A stretch of 64,000 bases of DNA from Gemmatimonadota bacterium (GTDB lineage: Bacteria; Gemmatimonadota; Gemmatimonadetes; Gemmatimonadales; GWC2-71-9): assembly GCA_039584325.1 (NCBI GenBank), contig JBDGYA010000032.1, positions 671 to 64,670 on the forward strand. Reading direction: 5' to 3'. The number at the start of each line of letters is the position of its first letter. Within the stretch, counting starts at the first letter, position 1. The notes under the pieces were generated by a model that saw only the letters and a list, made by a program, of their open reading frames with translations, had not been told where the DNA came from and ran no database searches. Shown one piece after another: positions 24,025-37,450 of the stretch. Position numbers and translations under genes: made by a program.

Positions 24025-26259
24025 ATGACCCCAACCTCCTCCGACACGGCGGTCGCGCGCCGGCCCGGCGAACGCCCGCCCTACGGCCTGGCGGCCGTCG
24101 TGTTCCTCGCCGTCCTCGGTGTCTACCTCGTCACGATCGCGCCGACCACGCAGTTCTGGGACACGTCCGAGTACATCGCCGCCGCCAAGGTATTGGGCAT
24201 CCCGCATCCGCCGGGGAATCCATTGTTCGTCCTGCTCGCGCATGTCTGGGGCCTGCTCCCGATCGTCGAGCACTACGCGCTCCGCATCAACCTCTTTGCG
24301 GCGCTCACGTCGGCGCTCGCATCGGGGTTCCTCTTCCTGGTCGCCGACCGGTTCCTGCGGACCATCGTCACGGAAGTACGGTGGGCCCGCCTCGGGGCGG
24401 CCCTGGGCGGCGTGCTCGTCGGTGCCACCTCGTTCACGGTCTGGCATCAGTCAGTGGTGAACGAGAAGGTCTACACGCTGAGCCTGCTGTCGATCGCGCT
24501 CGTGCTCTGGCTCGTGGTGCACTGGGGCGACGAGCCCGCGGGGCAACGGCGGGACCACTGGCTCATCCTCATCGTCTATCTGCTGGCCCTCAGCTCGACG
24601 AACCACCTGATGGGCGTGCTCGCCGCGCCGGCGCTCGTGGTCTACGTGCTGTTCACCGAGCCGGGGGCGGTGCTGCGATGGCGGCTGTGGGTAGTTTCGC
24701 TACTGGTGGCCGCTGTCGGGCTCAGCGTGTCGCTGGTCCTCCCGATCCGGGCCGGGTTCTTCCCGCCGATCAACGAAGGCGAGCCGGTGTGCGCGTCGAT
24801 CATCGGCGTGGTGGAGAGTGTCTACACGATGGGACGCGCGGGCTGTGAGCCGCTGTCCGACGTCCTCGGCCGTGAGCAGTACCAGAAAGGCCCTCTGTTC
24901 CCCCGCCAGGCGGACATCCTGTGGCAGTACGGCACCTGGTTGCAGTATTTCACGTGGCAGTTCGCGCACGACTGGAGCCAACCGATTCGCAACGCACTGG
25001 CGTTCGTCTTCGGCCTGCTCGGGCTCGCTGGCGCGGTACGGCACTGGCAGAGGGACCGGCGGGGCGCCGTCGCGATGATGGCCCTGATGCTCACCGTGGT
25101 CGTGGCGCTCGTGTTCTACCTCGACTTCAAGTACGGCTACTCCTGGCCGTCACGGCAGGCCGCCCCCGACGTGCTGCGCGAGGTGCGCGAGCGGGACTAC
25201 TTCTTCATCGCGTCATTCCAGCTGTGGGGCATATGGGTCGCCCTCGGGTTCGGGACGGTGATGCACGCAATTGCGAGCGCACTGCGCGACCGCATGCCGA
25301 CCGACCGACGGTGGGCGGTAGCGGCCCTCATCCTGGTGCTGGCGCTCGTCCCGCTCGTGGGCAACCGGCTCACGGCGTCGCGCTCCGGGGAAACCCTCGC
25401 GCGCGAATCGGCGCGGGACCTCCTGCAGTCGGTACCGCCCTATAGCATCCTCATCACCGCCGGGGACAACGACACGTTCCCCCTGTGGTACATGCAGGAA
25501 GTCGAGAATGTGCGGCGTGACGTGCTGCTGGCCAACATCTCCCTGATGAACACCGAGTGGCACATCAAGCAGCTCAAGCGGCGTGGGATCATTCCGTTTG
25601 ACACGGCACGTGCGGATCCGATTTACCGTGACACGACGTGGACGCCGCCGACCAACGAAGCCATCGCGCTCAGTTACGATGCCATCGAAGCGCTGCCGCC
25701 GTTCCAGCAGCTGGACGAACGGATGGTGTTCCGCGCGCAGGATCTGCGGGTGGTGCTCCCGCCGCGCGTGCTCGGTCGAGCGGACATCGTCGGACTGCAC
25801 CTGATCCAGCAGAATCTCGGTAAGCGGCCGGTCTATTTCTCGCGGACCACCGGCTCCTACGCCGACCAGTTTGGACTCACACCCTATCTGCTCGGTGAGG
25901 GACTCGTGCGCCGGGTGATGCCAGATTCCATCGTCGCGGACAGCACCACGATGCGCATGGGCGCGCTCGGCTGGGTCGACCTCACTCGGACCGACACACT
26001 CCTCTTCGAGGTGTACAATCCCGAGTCCGCTGCGCGCGCCCGACCGCGCGGGTGGATCGATCCGCCGTCAGAGGGGATTCTGTGGCTCTACGCCCTGGTG
26101 TACGCCAATCACGCCCAGTACCTCGCGTCGCTCGCCGCGGACTCGGCGGCGGCCGCAGCGGATCCCACCCTGCTGACGCGGCTCGAGCTGGCGGCGGACC
26201 TCGCCGAACGCGCCTTCGCTCAGACCCAGCAGTACCGGACCGGCGTCTTCGGCTTCTAG
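24025..26259 (+). CDS. DUF2723 membrane protein (TMEM260-like GT-C fold; putative protein O-mannosyl/glycosyltransferase)
   Basis: FWDTSEYI...HPPGNP, EKVYTL, REVRERDYFF and GDNDTFPLWY motifs; about 10 TM helices. Confidence 0.85.
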   Translation: MTPTSSDTAVARRPGERPPYGLAAVVFLAVLGVYLVTIAPTTQFWDTSEYIAAAKVLGIPHPPGNPLFVLLAHVWGLLPIVEHYALRINLFAALTSALASGFLFLVADRFLRTIVTEVRWARLGAALGGVLVGATSFTVWHQSVVNEKVYTLSLLSIALVLWLVVHWGDEPAGQRRDHWLILIVYLLALSSTNHLMGVLAAPALVVYVLFTEPGAVLRWRLWVVSLLVAAVGLSVSLVLPIRAGFFPPINEGEPVCASIIGVVESVYTMGRAGCEPLSDVLGREQYQKGPLFPRQADILWQYGTWLQYFTWQFAHDWSQPIRNALAFVFGLLGLAGAVRHWQRDRRGAVAMMALMLTVVVALVFYLDFKYGYSWPSRQAAPDVLREVRERDYFFIASFQLWGIWVALGFGTVMHAIASALRDRMPTDRRWAVAALILVLALVPLVGNRLTASRSGETLARESARDLLQSVPPYSILITAGDNDTFPLWYMQEVENVRRDVLLANISLMNTEWHIKQLKRRGIIPFDTARADPIYRDTTWTPPTNEAIALSYDAIEALPPFQQLDERMVFRAQDLRVVLPPRVLGRADIVGLHLIQQNLGKRPVYFSRTTGSYADQFGLTPYLLGEGLVRRVMPDSIVADSTTMRMGALGWVDLTRTDTLLFEVYNPESAARARPRGWIDPPSEGILWLYALVYANHAQYLASLAADSAAAAADPTLLTRLELAADLAERAFAQTQQYRTGVFGF

Positions 26260-28307
26260 AAGCCGACGGTCAGGCCCGCCAGGAGTTGGCGGCCCGGTGC
26301 GGGCTCGAAGTAGCGCCCTCCCCGCGCGTTGACGACCACGGACGAGACGTATCGCTCGTCGAGTCCGTTCAATAGGGCGATGAACGGTGACAGGGACACG
26401 CGTCCCGTGCCACCTTCCCAGCCTGCCCGGACGTTCCCGATCGCATACGAGGGCGCATACGCGGTGTTGGCATCGTCCACAGGCACCGCGGACACCACCT
26501 CACCCTCGATGGTGAGCCACACAGCCCGCCCGGGCCACAGCGTCATCGTACCGAAGACCTGGTGGCGCGGCGCCCCCGGCACGCGGTTGCCACTCACGTC
26601 ACCCTCAGGCTTCACGAACTCCCGATACGTGAAGTCGCCGAACGTGTAGGCGGCCTGGACCGATGCCCACGCCGCGAGCGCGAGGCTCCCGGCGACCTCC
26701 ACCCCGCGGTGCCTGATGCGACCGGCATTACGGAAGAATCTCCGGCCGGCCTCGGCGGGGTCCTCGAACGGGACCAGCGCATCGCGCACGTCCGCATGAA
26801 ATCCCACCACCTCGTATTCCACCGGTCCCACACGCCCTCGAACACCCACCTCGAGTTGCAGCATACGTTGCGGCTCGAGCTCGGGGTTCAGGCCCCCACT
26901 TCCATCCGGGCGGTTGACCAGCTCCGTCGTGGTCGGCGTCTCGAAGCCCGTTCCGGCGTTGGCGAACGGCGCGAGCCACGGCGCGACGTGCGCCAATGCG
27001 CCCACCGACCACGTGATCGCGTCCATCACCCGCGAGCCCGTATCGTCGCCGTCTGTCGTGAGGCGATCGTCAACCGCGAAGGAGGAGCGGTCGTAGCGCG
27101 CCCCCGCCCGCAGCGCGAGTCCCGATCCCGGTTCCGCAATGACCTGCAGGAACGGACCGACGCCGGACACCCGCTCGCTCTGGTCGCGGGTGATGGTGGT
27201 GCCGTCGAGCGTGCGGTTCTCGCGATCGTCCCGCTGCCACTCGGCATCGAGGCCGGCCGTCACGCGCGCGACGTGAGCGAGGCCCGGGAGCGGCACCGCC
27301 ACCGTGCCGCGCAGACCGTAGGCCCAGCGCTCGAGCCCGATGGTGCCGAACGTGAGGGTGTTGTCCAGACTGCGTCGTATTCCGAATACCGCGAGGTCAG
27401 CGAGACCTCCGGCTCCGAAACCGTGCCGCAGGGCCAGTCCACCTTGCGCCTGCCATACCGCCTTGTCCGCGCCCGCCGCGACGTTGGCAGGGGCGGCCAA
27501 GGTCGGATCACGCCGCCACTCCTCGTCGGTGAGCGCACCCGGGTTGAGCGCCTCGGGCATGGTGGCGTACCAGCCGACGGCCGTCAGATCCGTGCGGGCA
27601 CCGAGGGGCGTGCGCAGGCGCGCTCGTGCGCGGCCGATGCGGGCCGCGCTGTGCTCGCGAAAGCCCGACACGTCGGTCCACGACCCGGACAGGTCGGCCC
27701 CACCACTGCCCACCGGGATCCCAGCCTCCACCGCGCCCTTCCAGAAACCATCCCCCAAGCCGGTGGCGCGCACCGCGGCGCCGGGAGCATCGACGACGGG
27801 TGGCCCGGACACGAGGTTGATGACTCCGCCGGAGGCGTTGCCATAGAGGCTCGAGCCGATACCGCGCCACACCTCGACGCGGGAGAGATCGCCGGGCTCC
27901 AGATTGGTCAGTTGGGTCTGCCCGTCCGCCGTGCTCAGCGGGATGCCGTCGAGCAGCACCTTGATACCCCGCACACCGAATGCCGAGCGCGCGCCGAAGC
28001 CCCGAATGGCAATGCGCTGATCGAGGGAGTAGTTGTACCGGTTGGAGACACGGACGCCGGGAGCGGACCGCAGCACGTCATCGAGACCGTCCGTCGTGCG
28101 ACCGCGAACGAGCGCGGCGGCTCCTTGAACGACGACGTGCGCATGCGGCAGGCGCGCGGAGGCCGTCCCTCCTCGGTCCACCGACACGATGAGGGTGTCG
28201 AGCACGGGCGGTCGTAGCGTGTCCTGCGCCAGGGGCACCGCGAGCACCGGCCGCGCCACGGCGAGGCAGGCCACGAGACCGACACCGCAGCCGACCGTCC
28301 GGATCAT
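26256..28307 (-). CDS. TonB-dependent receptor, YncD/PqqU-like
   Basis: Plug RYNYSLDQRIAIRGFGARSAFGVRGIKVLLDGIP..ADGQ and SLYGNASGGVI; FETPT; C-terminal YFEPAPGR...GF. Confidence 0.85.
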   Translation of the reverse strand: MIRTVGCGVGLVACLAVARPVLAVPLAQDTLRPPVLDTLIVSVDRGGTASARLPHAHVVVQGAAALVRGRTTDGLDDVLRSAPGVRVSNRYNYSLDQRIAIRGFGARSAFGVRGIKVLLDGIPLSTADGQTQLTNLEPGDLSRVEVWRGIGSSLYGNASGGVINLVSGPPVVDAPGAAVRATGLGDGFWKGAVEAGIPVGSGGADLSGSWTDVSGFREHSAARIGRARARLRTPLGARTDLTAVGWYATMPEALNPGALTDEEWRRDPTLAAPANVAAGADKAVWQAQGGLALRHGFGAGGLADLAVFGIRRSLDNTLTFGTIGLERWAYGLRGTVAVPLPGLAHVARVTAGLDAEWQRDDRENRTLDGTTITRDQSERVSGVGPFLQVIAEPGSGLALRAGARYDRSSFAVDDRLTTDGDDTGSRVMDAITWSVGALAHVAPWLAPFANAGTGFETPTTTELVNRPDGSGGLNPELEPQRMLQLEVGVRGRVGPVEYEVVGFHADVRDALVPFEDPAEAGRRFFRNAGRIRHRGVEVAGSLALAAWASVQAAYTFGDFTYREFVKPEGDVSGNRVPGAPRHQVFGTMTLWPGRAVWLTIEGEVVSAVPVDDANTAYAPSYAIGNVRAGWEGGTGRVSLSPFIALLNGLDERYVSSVVVNARGGRYFEPAPGRQLLAGLTVGF

Positions 28308-28338
28308 CCTCTCCCCCGTCGATGCCCGCGAATCCGCG

Positions 28339-29280
28339 TCAGCCTCGATCCGGAAGCGCCCCGCCGGCCGCAAGGTACGCGCGGAGCGCGGCAAGGTTGT
28401 CGAGGTGCACGGCTCCCTCCTGCTCCAGTGCCTTCGCTAGCCGTCCGACGCCGCGCCCACCCACGAGGAGCGTGGTGTCAGGCGGGAGCGCGCCGCGCAG
28501 CCGTCGGAGCTCCCCGCCAAGCTGCGCGGCCGCGTCAGGTGATACAACCGAGAGAGCAACCAGCCGCGGCCGGTGGCTGCTCGCCGCTCGGGCGAGGTCC
28601 TCGGCGGGGAGGTCGGCTCCGACGTAGAGCACGCGCCACCCCATCGTGGCCGCGATCACCGCCGCCATGAGCGCGCCGAATTCGTGCCGCTCCCCCGCCG
28701 GAGTGGCGCACAGGATTAGCGGACGGTCGGGATCGGAGCTCGAGGTACGCAGCAGGTCCCCCACAACCTGCCGGATCACCCCTGACACCAGATGCTCGTG
28801 CGCAATCGATAGCTCACCTGCCGCCCAGCGCTCGCCGATCTCGGTGAGGACAGGAGCCGCCACCGCCTCCAGCATGCGCTCGGCACCGAGCAGACCCACG
28901 GCCCGAGCGAGCAGGTGCTCCAGCCGGGACGCATCCATGTCCTCGGCCGCGTCCAGCGCTTCGTCGATCAGATCCGCAGCGCCGTCCGTCGATCGAGGCT
29001 CGGCTTCGGGGACCCGCGCTTCCTCCGCCTCATCGTCCCGGATGAGCCGCGTCAACTCATCGGTCGAGTGACCACTGATCTGACCAATACTACGCCCCGA
29101 GCTGGTTGCCCGCCGGAGCAGCCGCAGTCGCTCGATGTCCTCGTCCGAGTAGAGCCGGCGTCCCGTCGGGGACCGCGCCGGCTCGACGACTCCGTATCGC
29201 CGCTCCCACGCCCTGAGCACATCGGCCGACAGGCCGGTGCGTCGAACGACGACCTGAATTGGATGCTGTTTCTGCACCAC
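28339..29280 (-). CDS. carH: MerR-family B12-binding light-responsive repressor (CarH/LitR)
   Basis: MerR HTH (LRAWERRYG..P.R..GRRLYS), W-x9-EH (WAAGELSIAHEH) and cobalamin-binding ExHxxG (ERHEFG). Confidence 0.88.
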   Translation of the reverse strand: MVQKQHPIQVVVRRTGLSADVLRAWERRYGVVEPARSPTGRRLYSDEDIERLRLLRRATSSGRSIGQISGHSTDELTRLIRDDEAEEARVPEAEPRSTDGAADLIDEALDAAEDMDASRLEHLLARAVGLLGAERMLEAVAAPVLTEIGERWAAGELSIAHEHLVSGVIRQVVGDLLRTSSSDPDRPLILCATPAGERHEFGALMAAVIAATMGWRVLYVGADLPAEDLARAASSHRPRLVALSVVSPDAAAQLGGELRRLRGALPPDTTLLVGGRGVGRLAKALEQEGAVHLDNLAALRAYLAAGGALPDRG

Positions 29281-29381: not shown

Positions 29382-29451
29382 GAGACGATATATGGACATA
29401 CACTTGACAAGGCGGAGATTCTCGTTTAGCTTCTTGGACACGAATTGGACA
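29382..29451 (+). promoter_or_regulatory. Sigma70 promoter overlapped by a CarH-type operator (11-bp-spaced TnnACA direct repeats)
   Basis: TTGACA (29404) - N17 - TAGCTT (29427). TGGACA 29393 / TTGACA 29404 and TGGACA 29435 / TGGACA 29446 are each spaced 11 bp apart. Confidence 0.75.
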
Positions 29452-29510
29452 GCGGGCTGGCCGCTGAGAACGCAATAGATACATTTTCCCTTCTTGAGGA
29501 GTTGAATTCG

Positions 29511-29893
29511 ATGAAAGTCATTCCCACCCTTTCGCTCGCGGCAATCGCACTTTCGTTTGCCGTCCCGGCGTCCGCGCAGTATGCGGCGAAGGACGGCAGT
29601 CCGAAGGCCGACAAGACCATCGTCGAGACCGCGATCGCGGCTGGATCCTTTAAGACTCTGGTCACCGCCGTTAAGGCAGCCGGTTTGGTTGAAACGCTGT
29701 CCGGCGACGGTCCGTTCACGGTTTTCGCCCCGACCGACGAGGCATTCGCGAAGCTTCCCGCGGGCACGCTCGAGTCCCTGCTGGCTGATAAGGACAAGCT
29801 CACCGCCGTGTCGACGATGCGAAGGTGATCAAGGCTGACGTCATGGCGTCCAACGGTGTGATCCACGTGATCGACACCGTGCTGATTCCCTAA
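29511..29893 (+). pseudogene. Fasciclin (FAS1) domain protein with an internal deletion and frameshift
   Basis: Signal peptide plus [10 protein letters not shown] (H1) in one frame. [27 protein letters not shown] (H2) is in another frame from about 29810. The central YH segment is absent. Confidence 0.85.
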
Positions 29894-29912
29894 GCTTCCT
29901 GCTACCCTCCCC

Positions 29913-29949
29913 CGCGGGCTGTGGGGCTTCGGCCCCCGGCCCGCGTTTT
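29913..29949 (+). terminator. Rho-independent terminator
   Basis: CGCGGGCTGTGGGGC-TTCG-GCCCCCGGCCCGCG followed by TTTT. Confidence 0.85.
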
Positions 29950-30078
29950 CTATGTGGGATACTCCCCTTTCCATGCGTTCGGCTGCCCGTCAAGCCGTTG
30001 CCTCTTGACGACTTCCCACGTCGGACCGCAATGTGGATAGCACTGCCCGGTGTCCGGGCAGCACCGGGCCGACAGCCG

Positions 30079-32916
30079 ATGCCAACTTTCTTCGAGCGGC
30101 TCCGAGACGACCTGCGTCCGGAGGGGTACGAGATCGAGCGGGAGATCGCGAGCGGGGGGATGGGCACCGTCTTTCTCGCTCGCGAAGTTGCGCTCGACCG
30201 TCAGGTCGCCATCAAGATCATCCGGCCCGAGATGGCCACCGCCAAGGCCGGCGAACGCTTCCTGGCCGAGGCGCGCATTCTCGCCGACATTCGGCACTCC
30301 CACATCGTCAAAGTGTTCCGCGCGGGACAGACGAAGAACGGCATACCGTATTACGCGATGGAGTACCTGGGCGACGGGGAGACGCTCGCGGAGCGCATGC
30401 GCCGAGAACCACTGAGCCGTGCGGAGATCGTCAAGATCGGACGCGATCTGCTCGACGCCCTGGAGACCGTGCATCGTCGAGGCGTCATCCATCGGGACAT
30501 CAAGCCGCAGAACATCTTCCTCGTCGAGGGCGACGCCACACTCGTCGATTTCGGCATCGCCACTCCGTCGGGTCCGCAGACGGTCTCGCGCGAGGGAGCG
30601 GAGGTGGTGCCCGGCACGCCTTCATACATGCCGCCCGAGCACCGCTACGGGTGGGACGTCGGGCCGCAGACCGATATCTACGCGGTGGGCATGGTGCTGT
30701 ACGAGGCGCTCACCGGACGCCGGTGGAAGTGGTTCCTGCCCGACGACGTCCCCAGCTGGTCGGGCATACCCTTGCTGCTCAGGCGTCCGTTGCGCCGCGC
30801 GCTCGCCTTTGAGGTCGACGATCGGTGGGAGGATGCGTCGGCGTTCCGCCGCCCCTGGTGGCGCTCGCGCGTGCGCAAGTACCAGATGCGCACGCTGTTG
30901 CTCACGGTTGGGGCCCTGGTGGCAGGCTTGATCGCCGTGCTGATCGTGCGAGGACCACCCCGGCCTCCTGTGGATATGGCCATCGTCCCGTTCGACGTCG
31001 CGCCAGGGACCCCCGATTCGCTCGGATGGGAAGTGGCCCTGCTCACCGAACGCACTGTGGGGGCGCAGCTCGACGCGACCGCGGCGGTGCCGACGACCGC
31101 GCTCGTTCGCTCGCGGGATGTAGCCGCCGGCACGCCGGCCGAGATGCTGGAGCACCTGCACGCGGGGTCGTTGATACGGGGTACGGTGACCGAGGGAGGT
31201 CAGGGGCTGCGCGCCTCCGTCGAAGTGATGAATGCGCGCGGTGAAACGAGCTTCGAGGAGACCGCCCCCGACCGCCGTGGCCTGGCCTGCAAGCTCGCGC
31301 CGATGATCCTGCGGAGTCTCGGACTGGCCTATGAGGACTACCAGTGCCTGTTCCAAAACACGGCGGCGGAGGCAGTCGACTCCGTGCTCCGGGGCGAGGC
31401 GGCCTTTCGACGCCAGGCCTGGCATCGGGCTGACACGCTCTACAGCGCCGCCCTGGAAGCAGACTCCTCCCTCGCGTGGGCGCTGTACAGACGGGCTCAC
31501 GCCCGTCGATGGCTCCGGGTGAAGTTCAAGGCCGATCTCGAAGCATTGCAGGAGCGCCGCAGTGCACTGCTCGAAGTCGACCGCATGCTGCTCGATGCCT
31601 GGCTGATGCCCTTCGGCACGGAGCGGCTCGCACAGTACGCGGAGATCGTCGACCGCTTCCCGCTGGACCCGTACCCGTGGCTCGTGTTCGGCGACGATCT
31701 GCGGGCGCGCGGAGCGTTGCTGGGCCTGCCACGCGACAGTGCCTTGCAGGTGCTGCGGCAGGCCGTCAGTCGCGACTCGACGATGGGGCCCGCTCTGCTC
31801 GACCTGACACTCGCCGGGATCGAGTCCGGCGATTCGGTCGTGGCGCGCGAGTGGCTTGGTCGGCTCGCTGGAGTCACCGTGCCCGAGGCGTCGATCCCGA
31901 TGCAGTACGTCCATACGGCGTTCGTGTTCCGGTTCGGTTCGGAGCGAGAGCGATTGGCCGCGATGTCCGAGCTCATGACCGGAGTTGGCGGCGATCCGAC
32001 CGCCCTTCCGACGTTCCTGCAAAACGTCCGGTGGGCCCTCTCACTCGACCTCGCTGAGGGACAGCTCATCATCGCGGACCTCGTGCGTCAGACGCCGCCG
32101 GACCTGCCTCCGGAGGTGCAGGCACATCTGCTGACGGCGCGGGGCGTGGCGCTCGTCGGTCTGGGCCGCTGGGCTGAGGCGGTCGAGACCTTCGACGCCG
32201 TCGACGCGGTGATCGGGACCCCAGCCTCCGCAGTGCTCACGGCGCAGTGGCGCACGGTCCCCCATGCGATCGGACTCGATGCAGTACCGGCTGCGTCCGT
32301 TGCCGAAGGGCGGCGCAGGCTCGAGGCGCTCGCCGACGACTCGCTGGTGGGGCCCCGCGCCGCGTGGAGCCTGGCGGTGAGCTACTACGCCGAGGGCGAC
32401 GTGGCGGCCGCGCAGCGGTGGGTGCAGCACACGCGGCTGAGCGATTCCGAGCACGCCAGACTGTTCCAGTTTCTCCAGGCGCTCCAGCGCGAGGCCATCG
32501 GCGACGTGGCCGGTGCTCTCGCCATGACCGACACGATGATCCCGAGCGATCTGGTTCTGGCCGATATTCCGGTCCACCTTCCCGTGTTCGATCCCTTCCT
32601 CCGCGCCGTCACCTACCTCGCCCGCGGCCGGTGGGAGCGTACCCTCTACGGGGACACGATACCGGTGGCGTGGCGCTGGCATGAGAACTCCGATTTCCGC
32701 GGTCAGTTCGAGGCCCTGCCGCAGGCGGCGGAGATCGACTGGGCGCTGCGACCCTACGCCCATCTCCTGACGGCGCGCGCCCGCCTCGCGCGGGGCCCGA
32801 GCGAGCCCGCCTGTCGGGACCTCGAGCGGATCGCCCACGTCTGGCAAGGTGCCGACGCGGTGTTCCAGCCGCTGCTGGAGGAGACTCGGACCCTGCTCTC
32901 GGAGCGCTGCCATTGA
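30079..32916 (+). CDS. Membrane Ser/Thr (Hanks-type) protein kinase with a large C-terminal TolB-N/TPR-like extracytoplasmic region
   Basis: GGMGTVF, VAIK, HRDIKPQN, DFG, GTPSYMPPE and DIYAVG motifs; TM helix LLLTVGALVAGLIAVLIV; helical repeats downstream. Confidence 0.9.
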   Translation: MPTFFERLRDDLRPEGYEIEREIASGGMGTVFLAREVALDRQVAIKIIRPEMATAKAGERFLAEARILADIRHSHIVKVFRAGQTKNGIPYYAMEYLGDGETLAERMRREPLSRAEIVKIGRDLLDALETVHRRGVIHRDIKPQNIFLVEGDATLVDFGIATPSGPQTVSREGAEVVPGTPSYMPPEHRYGWDVGPQTDIYAVGMVLYEALTGRRWKWFLPDDVPSWSGIPLLLRRPLRRALAFEVDDRWEDASAFRRPWWRSRVRKYQMRTLLLTVGALVAGLIAVLIVRGPPRPPVDMAIVPFDVAPGTPDSLGWEVALLTERTVGAQLDATAAVPTTALVRSRDVAAGTPAEMLEHLHAGSLIRGTVTEGGQGLRASVEVMNARGETSFEETAPDRRGLACKLAPMILRSLGLAYEDYQCLFQNTAAEAVDSVLRGEAAFRRQAWHRADTLYSAALEADSSLAWALYRRAHARRWLRVKFKADLEALQERRSALLEVDRMLLDAWLMPFGTERLAQYAEIVDRFPLDPYPWLVFGDDLRARGALLGLPRDSALQVLRQAVSRDSTMGPALLDLTLAGIESGDSVVAREWLGRLAGVTVPEASIPMQYVHTAFVFRFGSERERLAAMSELMTGVGGDPTALPTFLQNVRWALSLDLAEGQLIIADLVRQTPPDLPPEVQAHLLTARGVALVGLGRWAEAVETFDAVDAVIGTPASAVLTAQWRTVPHAIGLDAVPAASVAEGRRRLEALADDSLVGPRAAWSLAVSYYAEGDVAAAQRWVQHTRLSDSEHARLFQFLQALQREAIGDVAGALAMTDTMIPSDLVLADIPVHLPVFDPFLRAVTYLARGRWERTLYGDTIPVAWRWHENSDFRGQFEALPQAAEIDWALRPYAHLLTARARLARGPSEPACRDLERIAHVWQGADAVFQPLLEETRTLLSERCH

Positions 32917-34802
32917 TTACGTGCCGCGTGTTGGGCCCGCCGGACATCCTGGTCGACGGAGCACCGGGGCCCGCGGAGCTGCAGTGGCGCAAGAACCTCG
33001 CATTGCTGGTGTATCTCGCGCGATCCCCGCGGCGCACGCGCACCCGGGAGCACCTCATGGGTCTGTTGTGGGCGGACAAGCCGGACACCGCCGCCCGGCA
33101 CTCGCTGCGGGAGGCCATCCGCATCCTCCGCAAGGCACTGGGTGAGGAGGGGCTGCGCACCGAGCACGATAGCGTCACGCTCGGCGACGGGGTCGTGCGC
33201 CTCGACGCCGAGGAATTCGCGCAGCACGAGCAGAAGGGAGACTGGGAAGCCGCCGCGGCCGTAGTCGGCGGGGAGTTCCTGGAAGGCTTCGGGGTGCCGG
33301 GCGCGTCCGGCTTCGAGGACTGGCTCATCGCCGAACGCGAGGAGTGGCGCAGGCGCACGGTGAGCGTGCTGACGGAGCGGGCGGATCGGCAACTCGACGC
33401 CGGACGGCTCGGTCCGGCCGCGCAGACGGCGCTGCGCGCCTTGGGACTCGACGCCGGATCCGACGCACCGGCCCGCGTGGCCATGCGCGCCCTGGCCCTC
33501 GCGGGTGACCGCGCGGGCGCGCTGGCGTGCTACGAGCGACTGAGGCACCGACTGGCCGAGCTTGGTGGCACGCCGGAGGCCGAGACCGAAGCCCTGGCGA
33601 AGCGCGTGCAGCTCGAGCGGACGTGGCGGCTGTCCGACGAGGTGCCGATCGACGCCGCGCTGGGGGCGGAGCTGCGCCGCGCACCGCTGGTGGGTCGTGA
33701 GCGGCACTTGAAGGCACTCATGGACGTGTTCGAGACGAGCGCGCGCGAGCGGCAGGCGGCGGTGTGCGTGATCCACGCCGTACCGGGACTCGGCAAGTCG
33801 CGGCTCGCCGAGGAGTTGCTCATTCGCGCGCGACTCGCGGGGGCGGCCGTGTCCGCGGTTCGCGCAGTCGAGGGTGACCTGGACGTCCCGGGCAGTGGCA
33901 TGCTGGGCCTCGCCCGTGGCGGGTTGCTCAACGCCTCCGGGCTCGCGGCCGCCGCACCGTCCGCCCTTGCCTCCTTCGCGCACGAGCTGCCCGACTGGGC
34001 AGAGCGGTTCGGCACGCAGGCGGAGCCCGGACCGCTGCGCACGGCGTTCGTGGAGGTCGTGCGGGCGCTGTGTGAGGAGCAACCCGTCGTCCTGCTGGCC
34101 GACGATGCCCACTGGCTCGACACGGATAGCATGCGCGGGCTGGTGCAGACTGTGCGCGACTTGCAGACATCCCCTTGCCTCGTGGTGTTCGCGACGCAGG
34201 AGGAGCCGTCCCGTACCGAGCTCGATGACGTCCGCGCGCGGCTGGGGCGCGACCTCACCGGCACCGCCGTCCATCTCGCCCCGCTCGATCAGGAGGCCAT
34301 TCGGGAGCTGGTGGCGTGGGCCGTGCCGGACTACGCGGACGACGAGGCCGACCGGCTCGCGCGCCGCATCGCCATCGACTCGGCCGGTCTCCCTCTGCTT
34401 GCGGTAGAGTTGCTCCACGCCGTGGCACTCGGGCTCGACGTCGGGAAGATCACGGGCGCATGGCCTGAGCCGTACAAGACGCTGGATCAGACGCTGCCGA
34501 GCGACCTCCCGGACACCATCGTGGCGGCGATTCGCGTCGGGTTCCGGCGACTCAGCAGCGATGCCCAGGCACTGCTCGCGGCTGCGGCAGTGCTCGGTGG
34601 CCGACAGCCGGCGGCGATGCTCGGCCGCGCCACCGACCTGAGCGGCGACCGCCTTGATGCTGCGCTCGACGAATTGGAATGGCAGCGCTGGCTGGCCGCC
34701 GACGCCCGCGGCTACGCCTGCGTCGCACGCATTGCCCGGGAGGTCATCGACCGCGACATGATCACGGAGGGTCAACGGCAACGGATTCAGCACGCCGTGT
34801 AG
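32913..34802 (+). CDS. SARP-family regulator: wHTH + BTAD + STAND-type AAA ATPase, with no C-terminal sensor repeats
   Basis: RVLGP...LALLVYLA...LLW, GEFLEG..FEDWL, LVGRE, AVPGLGKS (Walker A) and LLADDAHWLD (Walker B). TTG start overlaps the kinase stop. Confidence 0.85.
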   Translation: MITCRVLGPPDILVDGAPGPAELQWRKNLALLVYLARSPRRTRTREHLMGLLWADKPDTAARHSLREAIRILRKALGEEGLRTEHDSVTLGDGVVRLDAEEFAQHEQKGDWEAAAAVVGGEFLEGFGVPGASGFEDWLIAEREEWRRRTVSVLTERADRQLDAGRLGPAAQTALRALGLDAGSDAPARVAMRALALAGDRAGALACYERLRHRLAELGGTPEAETEALAKRVQLERTWRLSDEVPIDAALGAELRRAPLVGRERHLKALMDVFETSARERQAAVCVIHAVPGLGKSRLAEELLIRARLAGAAVSAVRAVEGDLDVPGSGMLGLARGGLLNASGLAAAAPSALASFAHELPDWAERFGTQAEPGPLRTAFVEVVRALCEEQPVVLLADDAHWLDTDSMRGLVQTVRDLQTSPCLVVFATQEEPSRTELDDVRARLGRDLTGTAVHLAPLDQEAIRELVAWAVPDYADDEADRLARRIAIDSAGLPLLAVELLHAVALGLDVGKITGAWPEPYKTLDQTLPSDLPDTIVAAIRVGFRRLSSDAQALLAAAAVLGGRQPAAMLGRATDLSGDRLDAALDELEWQRWLAADARGYACVARIAREVIDRDMITEGQRQRIQHAV

Positions 34803-34837
34803 ACGTTCCGGCAGGAGCGTCAGTCGGGGGGCACGCT

Positions 34838-37450
34838 ATGTCCACGATCCATCGTTCCGGGCTCCACGTGAGCCGTTGGTGGTACGTCGTTCCCATGCTC
34901 CTGCTCGCGGCGGTCCCGGCCACCGCGCAGCAACCGACCCTGGCGGGAACGGTCGTCGATTCGCTCACCGGCCGGGCGCTCGACGGCGTGCGCATCGAGT
35001 TACGCCGAGACACTGCCGTGACCGCGAGTGGCGTGACCGATGCCGGCGGCGCCTTCTCGCTCGCGGCTCCGGCGGGAGCCTATCGCCTCGTCGTGGCCCG
35101 CCTCGACTACCGCCCGCGCATCGTCGATCCGTTCCAGTTGCCGGCGGATGGCACAACCCTCACAATCGCGCTGACGCCCCAGGCCATCGTGTTCAACCCG
35201 ATCGTCGTGACGGCCTCGCGGGCGGAGGAGAAGGCGCTCGACGCCCCGGCATCCGTGAGCGTCATCAACCACCAGGACGTGGAGGCACGTCCCGCGCTCA
35301 CGCCGGTCGACCACGCGTACGCAACGACCGGCATGCAGGTCGCCACCACCGGCCTCACCCAGCACGAGATGGTGGCGCGGGGATTCGGCAATGCCGCCTC
35401 GGGCGCCCTCCTCCTGCTGAGTGACAACCGCTACGCGCAGGTGCCGTCGCTCAGGATCAACGTCTACAACTTCATCCCCGTCACCGACGAGGACATCGAT
35501 CGCGTCGAGGTCGTGCGCGGTCCGGGGTCCGCCCTGTACGGGCCCAATTCGGCGGACGGCGTGTTCCATATCATCTCTCGGTCACCGTTCGACTATCCGG
35601 GTACCGCCCTGACAGTGAGCGGGGGGCAGCGGGAGCTGCTGCACGCGCAGTTGCGTCACGCGAGCGCGTTCGGCGAGCGATTCGCCCTCAAGCTGTCCGG
35701 TCAGTACATGCGCGGACGCGACTGGCCCTACGATGACCCGGCGGAGATCCTCCCGCGTGACAGCATCGTAGAGCGCGTGAGCGGCGACGTTCGATTGGAT
35801 TGGCGGCCCGGCACCGAGGCCTCGGTCACCGCCTCCGTCGGGGTCAACCAGGCACTCTCCAGCCTCGAGTTGACACCACTCGGCGCCGCACAGGCACGGG
35901 ATTGGCGCTCGTCCTACGCGCAGGTCAGGGTCCGGCTCGGCCGCTTCTTCGGTCAGGCGTTCGTCAACCTGAGCGACGCCGGGGGAACCCAACTGCTCCG
36001 CAGCGGCGACAGCATCGTGGACCGGTCGCAGCTGTGGGTAGCACAACTACAGCACGGCGTGCTCCTCGGATCGCGCGTGAACCTGACCTACGGGATCGAT
36101 CTTCAGCGGACGGCCCCGCGCACGGACGGCACGGTCAACGGCCGCAACGAGGACGACGACAACATCGACGAGGCCGGCGCCTACGTGCAGGCGGAAGCAG
36201 AGCTGTCGCGCGCCGTGCGCCTCGTGGTGGCATTCCGGGGAGACTATCACAGCCGGCTCGATGACCCGATCCTGTCACCCCGGGCCGCCCTCGTCCTGCA
36301 GCCGGCCAGCGACCAGTCCGTCCGCCTCACGTACAACAGAGCGTTCAGTACGCCGACCACCAACCAGCTGTTCCTGGACATCGTAGGCGGTACGCTGCCG
36401 ACCCCCGTTCCGACGATCATCAGGCTGGTGGGCGTGCCGAAGACGGGCTTCACGTTCCGGCGCGACTGCGACGGCGACCTCTGCATGCGCTCGCCGTACA
36501 CGCCGGCCGACCTGGGCGGTGGCGAGGCGTACCTCCCGCTCGACGTCACTCTGCTCTGGCCCGCGGTGGTGCAGCTTGCCGCGAGCCAGGGCGTCGACAT
36601 CTCGCCGATTCCCCCACCCACCGCGAGCGACGTCGGCACGGTGCTGCGGAAGCTCAATCTCGGCACAGGTGGCTTTGACCCGGTGACGGGAGCGAGTGAT
36701 CTGCCGCCGCTCAAGCCACCGATCCACAACTCGATCGAGCTGGGCTACCGCGGCGTGCTGTGGGACCGGCTGTCCGTTGGGTTCGACGTCTATCGCGGGT
36801 GGAGAACCGATTTCGTGGGAGCCGAACGGGTGGAGACGCCGAGTGCCTTCTTCGACGAGGCCGATCTCCGCTCCTATTTCATCGCCGTCGGTGTGCAAGC
36901 CGACACGGCCGCACAGCTTGCCGGTCTCATCGCCGCGGTCCCGGCCGCGACCGTGACGCCGCAGGAAGCACGCGATCCGTGGGACATCCTGGTCACCTAC
37001 CGGAACTTCGGGAACGTCGGGTACTGGGGCAGCGACATCGAAGTCGGGGCAGTCGTGACGCCGTGGCTCGCACTGCGGGGCACCTACTCCTGGGTGAGCA
37101 AGAACCAGTTCGAGGCAGTGGACGCGGCCGGCCGGCCCGATACGGTACCTCTCAATGCCTCGGCGAACCGGGCGGCCTTCAGCGTCGTCGCGCGGCACGA
37201 CGGCGTCGGTCTCAACGCCGAGGTGCGCGGGCGGTGGGTCGACGGCTTTCCGGTCAGCTCGGGCGTGTACGTGGGGACCGTCGACGCGTACGCGGTGCTC
37301 GATGCGCTCGCTGGCTACCGCCTGCCCTTCGCTCGCCAGGTGACGGTGACGGTAAGCGCTCTCAACCTGCTCGACAACGACCACATCGAGTTCGTGGGGG
37401 CACCGCCGATCGGGCTGCTGGTGATGGGGAGTGTCAGAGCGGAGTTTTAG
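34838..37450 (+). CDS. TonB-dependent receptor with an N-terminal carboxypeptidase-regulatory-like domain
   Basis: Signal peptide; IVVTASR, DAPASVSV, IDRVEVVRGPGSALYG and NLLDN motifs; terminal F. Confidence 0.9.
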   Translation: MSTIHRSGLHVSRWWYVVPMLLLAAVPATAQQPTLAGTVVDSLTGRALDGVRIELRRDTAVTASGVTDAGGAFSLAAPAGAYRLVVARLDYRPRIVDPFQLPADGTTLTIALTPQAIVFNPIVVTASRAEEKALDAPASVSVINHQDVEARPALTPVDHAYATTGMQVATTGLTQHEMVARGFGNAASGALLLLSDNRYAQVPSLRINVYNFIPVTDEDIDRVEVVRGPGSALYGPNSADGVFHIISRSPFDYPGTALTVSGGQRELLHAQLRHASAFGERFALKLSGQYMRGRDWPYDDPAEILPRDSIVERVSGDVRLDWRPGTEASVTASVGVNQALSSLELTPLGAAQARDWRSSYAQVRVRLGRFFGQAFVNLSDAGGTQLLRSGDSIVDRSQLWVAQLQHGVLLGSRVNLTYGIDLQRTAPRTDGTVNGRNEDDDNIDEAGAYVQAEAELSRAVRLVVAFRGDYHSRLDDPILSPRAALVLQPASDQSVRLTYNRAFSTPTTNQLFLDIVGGTLPTPVPTIIRLVGVPKTGFTFRRDCDGDLCMRSPYTPADLGGGEAYLPLDVTLLWPAVVQLAASQGVDISPIPPPTASDVGTVLRKLNLGTGGFDPVTGASDLPPLKPPIHNSIELGYRGVLWDRLSVGFDVYRGWRTDFVGAERVETPSAFFDEADLRSYFIAVGVQADTAAQLAGLIAAVPAATVTPQEARDPWDILVTYRNFGNVGYWGSDIEVGAVVTPWLALRGTYSWVSKNQFEAVDAAGRPDTVPLNASANRAAFSVVARHDGVGLNAEVRGRWVDGFPVSSGVYVGTVDAYAVLDALAGYRLPFARQVTVTVSALNLLDNDHIEFVGAPPIGLLVMGSVRAEF

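Follow-up and report, generated by a model that had tools for sequence, protein, structure and literature searches.

A receptor-type Ser/Thr kinase gene overlapping a medium SARP/NB-ARC regulator gene in Gemmatimonadales, a probable two-gene signalling cassette

The stretch of DNA under study, hereafter the window, comprises 64,000 nucleotides (nt) of a Gemmatimonadota bacterium (assembly GCA_039584325.1, contig JBDGYA010000032.1, 671 to 64,670, forward), and all coordinates given below are positions within it. Near its middle lie three co-oriented genes encoding a membrane-bound Hanks-type Ser/Thr kinase, a regulator combining a SARP domain with an NB-ARC-type NTPase, and a TonB-dependent receptor (Table 1). 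The regulator start overlaps the kinase stop codon by 4 nt within the tetranucleotide TTGA (32913..32916, +; ...CAT TGA / TTG ATT...), and the receptor ATG follows the regulator after a spacer of 35 nt. This arrangement is exactly that described by an earlier interpretation made from the nucleotide sequence alone (the sequence-only reading), which had proposed that the three genes constitute one signalling module. The analysis presented here supports a conserved and coupled pair formed by the kinase and the regulator, but not a conserved unit of three genes.

Table 1. Features of the kinase-regulator-receptor locus, in window coordinates
Feature	Position	Strand	Basis or remark
Hanks-type Ser/Thr kinase gene, 945 amino acids (aa), type-I membrane topology	30079..32916	+	orthologues align from residue 1
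Kinase catalytic domain, residues 17-214	30127..30720	+	Pfam Pkinase 3.6e-39
Kinase single transmembrane (TM) helix, ~residues 271-291	30889..30951	+	sole hydropathy window >=1.6 in the kinase
Kinase sensor region, most likely periplasmic, residues 292-945 (654 aa)	30952..32913	+	AlphaFold2, Foldseek
Codons of C912 and C944 (32812-32814, 32908-32910), candidate disulfide pair	32812..32910	+	invariance in 35/35
Medium-size SARP regulator gene, 629 aa	32913..34802	+	TTG start
Regulator winged helix-turn-helix (wHTH), Trans_reg_C, residues 27-80	32991-33152	+	Pfam 1.4e-6
Regulator BTAD, residues 105-232	33225-33608	+	Pfam 6.7e-12
Regulator NB-ARC-type NTPase, AAA_16, residues 258-425	33684-34187	+	Pfam 1e-17
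Regulator Walker A	33786-33800	+	
Regulator helical and winged-helix-like end	34290-34796	+	structure model
TonB-dependent receptor gene, 870 aa	34838..37450	+	ATG start
Receptor signal peptide	34838-34933	+	
Receptor CarboxypepD_reg N-terminal extension, residues 34-112	34937-35173	+	Pfam
Receptor Plug, residues 134-242	35237-35563	+	Pfam
Receptor beta-barrel	35888-37369	+	
Promoter-like element: TTGACG (30005-30010), 18-nt spacer, CAATGT (30029-30034)	30005..30034	+	alignment by eye

The kinase has the motifs that define a Hanks-type enzyme, namely VAIK43, HRD138, DFG157 and PPE185, and the segment preceding its TM helix (RSRVRKYQMR) is rich in arginine and lysine residues. It is not an equivalog of AfsK, as it scores 72 bits with the NCBIfam model NF053615 against a cut-off of 1300. 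Since the kinase domain must be cytoplasmic and a single TM helix is present, the remaining 654 residues should be on the other side of the membrane, and the repeat region is thus most likely periplasmic, as the sequence-only reading had supposed. We have modelled residues 321–945 with AlphaFold2, using 35 orthologues, and obtained a model with a pLDDT of 90.8 and a pTM of 0.90, in which some 26 helices come after a small alpha/beta domain; the fragment started at residue 321, so that residues 292–320 of the first periplasmic subdomain were cut off. Pfam, hydropathy and AlphaFold2 therefore bear out the intact catalytic motifs, the single TM helix and the helical C-terminal region of approximately 650 aa that had been read from the sequence. 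The first subdomain presumably resembles the TolB-N/FlgO type, weak FlgO matches being seen in paralogues (E 0.003–0.005). In Foldseek the model retrieved generic tetratricopeptide repeat (TPR) superhelices only, among them the periplasmic portion of DdvA, a transmembrane anti-sigma factor (8rw5). The periplasmic part contains four cysteine residues, at positions 404, 423, 912 and 944, the last two of which are invariant in all 35 aligned orthologues while C404 and C423 are not. The invariance of C912 and C944 fits a putative disulfide in an exported domain.

A different organization is found in the regulator, in which a wHTH and a BTAD domain precede the NTPase, whose Walker A and Walker B motifs are both conserved among homologues, the former ending in Ser/Thr. 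A phmmer search of its sequence against those of the PDB returned no match, so that a structural search was needed. The model of the protein (pLDDT 84.8) ends after the helical and winged-helix-like region, and the best Foldseek matches were to the SARP domain of AfsR (8hvr and 8k60, TM-score ~0.66–0.68, 25–26% identity), with further structural matches to the NB-ARC of Apaf-1 and of plant NLRs and to EmbR (2ff4, 2fez). Pfam gave no TPR match, the protein ending at residue 629 and so lacking the TPR domain of a large SARP, nor any FHA domain, no such family appearing at E≤0.01. The question of whether such a regulator is merely shortened is answered by its homologues: in the best 120 clusters (from 2135 homologues at E≤1e-10) the lengths are 566–657 aa, mostly 620–647, at 54–100% identity, and the orthologues in relatives from two families span query residues 1 to ~627. 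Longer relatives of 1100–1440 aa are only ~30% identical and are paralogues with TPR, PD40 or other sensor domains. We have thus ruled out a truncation, as the orthologues are all ~630 aa, and the absence of a TPR sensor noted in the sequence-only reading is genuine. The architecture is that of the published medium SARP class, defined by a SARP domain plus an NB-ARC in ~600 aa and exemplified by CdaR, CpkO and FdmR1 (PMC10972967), which the regulator matches in SARP domain, NB-ARC and length.

Conservation of the locus was analysed in two partially overlapping sets, set A with 20 loci from related genomes and set B with 67 loci from public Gemmatimonadota assemblies with 5-kb flanks. Each of the 67 loci has a regulator orthologue at 49–73% identity, and some of them are interrupted by contig ends. 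One genome flagged as unpublished (G021) is included in the tallies of relatives, and no claim depends on it. In 44 of the 67 loci an orthologous kinase, in most cases matched over its full length, lies upstream on the strand of the regulator, with its end no more than 120 nt away from the latter. Among the 64 loci that retain the 5' end of the regulator, 42 show the 4-nt TGA/start overlap with an upstream open reading frame (ORF), which was required to have at least 250 codons; an ATGA at the regulator start also occurs in kinase-less loci, its second codon being Ile, and the overlap therefore carries weight only where that position is also the end of a kinase ORF. This is indeed the case in most of them, 38 having the orthologous kinase as the overlapping ORF, two a paralogous kinase and the other two an unassigned ORF, and four more loci have a 1-nt overlap. 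The two paralogous kinases (L089, L101), each with a Pkinase domain, a weak FlgO-like match and TPR, occupy the same slot with the same overlap. In the two loci with an unassigned ORF (L087, L098), this ORF of ~260–300 codons separates the kinase from the regulator.

Outside the genus of the window, the kinase adjoins the regulator in all six relatives that have a match to its periplasmic part at E≤1e-30. At this threshold the periplasmic query matched none of the eight genomes of family f3, despite the presence of syntenic orthologues there, and is too divergent to report presence or absence. The surroundings of the pair are rather variable. Flanking it are found fasciclin-like and CarH-like genes in the genus of the window, histidine ammonia-lyase in family f3, and a cupredoxin or an MR/MLE enzyme elsewhere, and downstream a response regulator with HD-GYP, DUF4956 with Omp85, alpha/beta-hydrolases, NosD-like beta-helix proteins and others. 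As the flanking genes vary by lineage, the pair has survived many rearrangements, and it is the two genes that make up the conserved unit. Two side observations concern the composition of the pair. An ORF of 206–263 aa without Pfam match lies in the kinase-regulator interval at L087:2381-3172, L092:4377-4997 and L095:4221-4997, and the subgroup with this intervening ORF carries a response regulator plus HD-GYP downstream. At L053:2197-6881 and L055:6811-10637, the first pair has beside it another kinase gene and another short SARP-NTPase gene, the two being mutually divergent.

The receptor presents a distinct scenario. Its 35-nt spacer leaves no space for a promoter of its own, and it is thus probably co-transcribed with the regulator. 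An orthologous receptor is downstream of the regulator in only 13 of the 67 loci, all of which have regulators at least 59% identical to that of the window, and in the other 54 no orthologous receptor is found downstream and unrelated genes follow. Even in the 13 the arrangement differs: the receptor comes immediately after the regulator in six (L041, L047, L050, L069, L074, L085), and in seven (L042, L044, L045, L046, L049, L051, L052) it lies behind a second kinase of ~1000 aa, some copies of which have an N-terminal zinc ribbon. The exact order of the window is seen in 3 of the 67 loci, so that conservation of the three genes across Gemmatimonadota, which had been set in advance as the test of the sequence-only reading, was not obtained. 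The receptor is thus an addition specific to a subclade, presumably co-transcribed as a passenger or as an output, and not a conserved third part of the signalling. Pfam detected only CarboxypepD_reg, Plug and barrel in it, and no STN signalling domain. A co-fold of the periplasmic part of the kinase with receptor residues 33–150 scored 0.00 against a mark of 0.32, a result that weighs neither way on binding. As to the sister clade, its order is kinase-regulator-kinase-receptor, with the second membrane kinase at ~6900–10010 in L042, L044, L045, L046, L049 and L051 and at L024:1439-4552. Also, at L038:2007-4190 (-), downstream of the regulator orthologue, one relative has a different kinase of 727 aa that bears a TonB_C domain (1.8e-9) at its C-terminus.

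The association of SARP and kinase domains is not confined to this locus. The genome of the window has ~90 kinase-domain matches in 4.56 Mb, i.e. ~1 per 50 kb, most of them in ORFs of 500–1100 aa, and 11 SARP-domain matches, four of which have a kinase domain next to them or in the same protein. One of the four is the window locus, a second is an adjacency on C71 between a SARP-domain match (5-607) and the kinase that comes after it (774-2027), and the other two are fusions. Of these, the protein on C66 (1152 aa; L108:1546-5004 (-)) has wHTH, BTAD, Pkinase, a TM helix and PD40 repeats, and that on C158 (997 aa; L109:2367-5360 (+)) has BTAD, Pkinase, a TM helix and TPR; both resemble transcription factors tethered to the membrane that contain their own kinase, with a PD40 propeller or TPR as periplasmic sensor. 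A metagenome protein of 1541 aa (P0179) joins BTAD, Pkinase, AAA_16 and SBP_bac_5 in one polypeptide. Two further proteins in which kinase and regulator appear as one chain (P0124, 1581 aa; P0125, 1459 aa) were not used: the regulator would follow the periplasmic domain, and P0125 has no clear second TM helix, so that they are likely frameshift or gene-calling errors. The fused membrane proteins suggest that a broader family of such circuits exists.

Our interpretation builds on the anatomy of the two proteins, the conservation of the pair and the overlap of the genes. We consider, with a probability of roughly 0.62, that the core feature of the locus is a two-gene cassette in which a receptor-type kinase has as its substrate the SARP/NB-ARC regulator specified by the gene that follows. 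The solenoid of the kinase would probably sense a cue in the periplasm or the envelope; the activated kinase would then most likely phosphorylate the translationally coupled regulator; a shift in the NB-ARC nucleotide switch or in the oligomerization of the regulator would be the probable consequence; and the SARP domain would finally engage target promoters. The phosphotransfer, signalling direction, ligand and regulon supposed here are taken by analogy from AfsK–AfsR and PknH–EmbR. As sensor repeats are lacking in the regulator itself, it probably receives its input through phosphorylation, and the catalytic motifs of the kinase together with the conserved Walker A and B of the regulator indicate that the parts look functional. 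Several observations weigh against this cassette. Four genus-mates (G001, G002, G003, G008) keep the order fasciclin-regulator-receptor with no kinase in between, and their closest homologue of the kinase, full length and 46–48% identical, is on another contig, which indicates that adjacency is dispensable. A kinase is likewise missing upstream in six loci for which 2.9 kb or more of the preceding sequence is available (L052, L060, L069, L074, L085, L099), and all the loci come from related Gemmatimonadales and are non-independent samples. The ~90 kinases of the genome could cross-talk with the regulator. Moreover, phosphorylation by AfsK has little effect on the activation of transcription by AfsR (PMC10936776), so that activation by phosphorylation is not safely transferred to the present case. 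Finally, direct repeats of the kind that SARPs bind at or near the -35 region of their target promoters were not found upstream of the operon (29890–30085), so that this search yielded no target promoter.

Among the other explanations, a chance adjacency without functional unit is the easiest to dismiss. With so many kinase-domain matches a kinase neighbour is fairly likely for any gene, and a single adjacency is weak evidence for that reason; nevertheless, 44 of the 67 loci have the orthologous kinase at this very place and in this orientation, with varied flanks and in at least two families, and this conserved synteny lifts the pair above chance, leaving the explanation very improbable. A more serious objection is that the two proteins are co-expressed for the same response and are not kinase and substrate, the kinase acting on other proteins and the regulator being switched by nucleotide or by another kinase. 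Both genes are retained in the four genus-mates where they are no longer adjacent, the kinase complement of the genome is large, and AfsR and EmbR are phosphorylated in vitro by several kinases (PMC10972967, PMC9239209), all of which is compatible with this view. The 4-nt overlap and the paralogous kinase in the same slot argue instead for a stoichiometric pair, as does the fusion of SARP and kinase domains in single polypeptides, and we therefore regard co-expression alone as a rather doubtful account of the locus.

The proposal of the sequence-only reading, according to which the three genes form one trans-envelope module whose kinase solenoid reads the occupancy of the receptor or the imported ligand, appears unlikely. 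Where the regulators are at least 59% identical the receptor is always downstream, on the same strand and with operon-like spacing, and both the probable co-transcription across the short spacer and the TonB_C-bearing kinase of L038 speak in its favour. Opposed to this are the rarity of the exact order, the unrelated genes that follow the regulator in 54 loci, the persistence of regulator and receptor in the four genus-mates that have no adjacent kinase, and the fact that the receptor carries a CarboxypepD_reg extension and no STN domain. Also, TPR solenoids are common on the kinases and on the membrane-bound BTAD regulators of this genome, and so are not specific to the locus. Whatever function of the kinase-regulator pair is conserved, it is not receptor-driven signalling. 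In a narrower form, restricted to the receptor-linked subclade (13 of 67 loci, the genus of the window included), the TonB receptor might deliver a ligand to the solenoid or report its state via the CarboxypepD_reg extension, which we also see as improbable; if true, it would amount to a trans-envelope pathway in which the receptor acts on the Ser/Thr kinase and the latter on an NLR-like transcription factor, involving neither STN nor a sigma/anti-sigma pair.

We have also inspected the region upstream of the cassette and the neighbouring genes. In six of seven upstream regions the TTGACG hexamer and a TAnnGT-like hexamer, ~18 nt apart, can be aligned by eye, in front of the kinase (window, L041, L050) or, where the kinase is absent, in front of the regulator (L069, L074, L085); this alignment suggests that a single promoter may serve the operon with or without the kinase. 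A strict scan for sigma-70 promoters and terminators upstream of the kinase found no promoter and no plus-strand terminator, and a hairpin with a TTTT run could be read by eye 3' of the fasciclin-like gene. This last gene, encoding a fasciclin-domain secreted protein just upstream of the kinase (29445-29893 (+)), is broken: its ORF stops at 29828 after profile positions 2–57 of 123, its last 28 residues are read in a different frame up to 29893, and ~33 residues are absent between the two parts. It is intact in sister genomes (175–192 aa), and an assembly error is possible. A minus-strand ORF of 182 aa (29426-29974) was rejected as a gene, being antisense to the fasciclin-like gene. Further upstream, a CarH-like regulator with MerR HTH and B12-binding domains (28339-29280 (-)) adjoins a second TonB-dependent receptor (26256-28394 (-)), a pairing kept in sister genomes. 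An Rfam scan of the whole window gave no match, and accordingly no cobalamin riboswitch near the CarH-like gene. The neighbours of the trio (fasciclin-like gene, CarH-like regulator, second TonB receptor, GlnRS and tricorn-like protease) include no extracytoplasmic function (ECF) sigma or anti-sigma factor among those scanned.

In respect to known systems, signalling from a kinase to a SARP and the medium SARPs themselves are already described, and the architecture, for which the sequence-only reading knew of no described system, does have precedents in the medium class (PMC10972967) and in the PknH–EmbR operon (PMC9239209). A literature search at listing level found no description of the present kinase-SARP pairing, and the terms BTAD, SARP and Gemmatimon are absent from the available part of a bacterial kinase atlas preprint. 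The analogy with the FecA–FecR–FecI relay is limited to the fact that a TonB-dependent receptor gene adjoins regulatory genes; unlike in that system, no STN was found on the receptor, the scanned neighbours hold no ECF sigma/anti-sigma factors and the linkage of the receptor is not conserved, and the analogy misses the part that defines it. CdaR, CpkO and FdmR1 are cluster-situated activators of antibiotic genes in Streptomyces, whereas the medium SARP of the window is found in Gemmatimonadales beside a kinase; no dedicated kinase partner for these three is mentioned in the available text of PMC10972967.

The closest parallels are found in Actinobacteria. AfsK phosphorylates AfsR at S22, T337, S391, T506 and S953, of which T337 closes the Walker A motif, and this raises the ATPase activity and the oligomerization of AfsR (PMC10936776). 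The present pair likewise combines a Hanks-type kinase with a regulator made of SARP (wHTH, BTAD) and NB-ARC/STAND parts, between which an equivalent phosphotransfer may be expected by analogy, and the Walker A of the regulator also ends in Ser/Thr, as in the T337 site of AfsR (PMC10936776). The two systems differ in that AfsR belongs to the large SARPs and has a TPR domain, that two genes lie between afsK and afsR (PMC10936776) where those of the window overlap by 4 nt, and that the window kinase is a membrane-spanning receptor bearing a periplasmic solenoid, the phylum being different as well. The embR and pknH genes belong to one operon, and phosphorylation of EmbR by PknH proceeds through the FHA domain of EmbR (PMC9239209). 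The window shares with this system a membrane kinase having an extracytoplasmic domain and a SARP regulator encoded in one operon, but the gene order is reversed, embR being upstream of pknH, and the C-terminal FHA of EmbR that docks on the kinase has its place taken by an NB-ARC NTPase, no FHA having been found. What is new here is the phylum, the receptor kinase with its periplasmic solenoid, the tight 1:1 cassette of overlapping genes and the modular nature of the genes downstream. A regulator without sensor combined with a true receptor kinase offers a cleaner system for studying how phosphorylation controls an NB-ARC switch, and the pair provides a way of approaching the very large set of kinases in the Gemmatimonadales. 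In AfsK–AfsR and PknH–EmbR many kinases feed into one regulator, with an effect that is disputed; the genes described here would represent a dedicated 1:1 cassette in a Gram-negative phylum.

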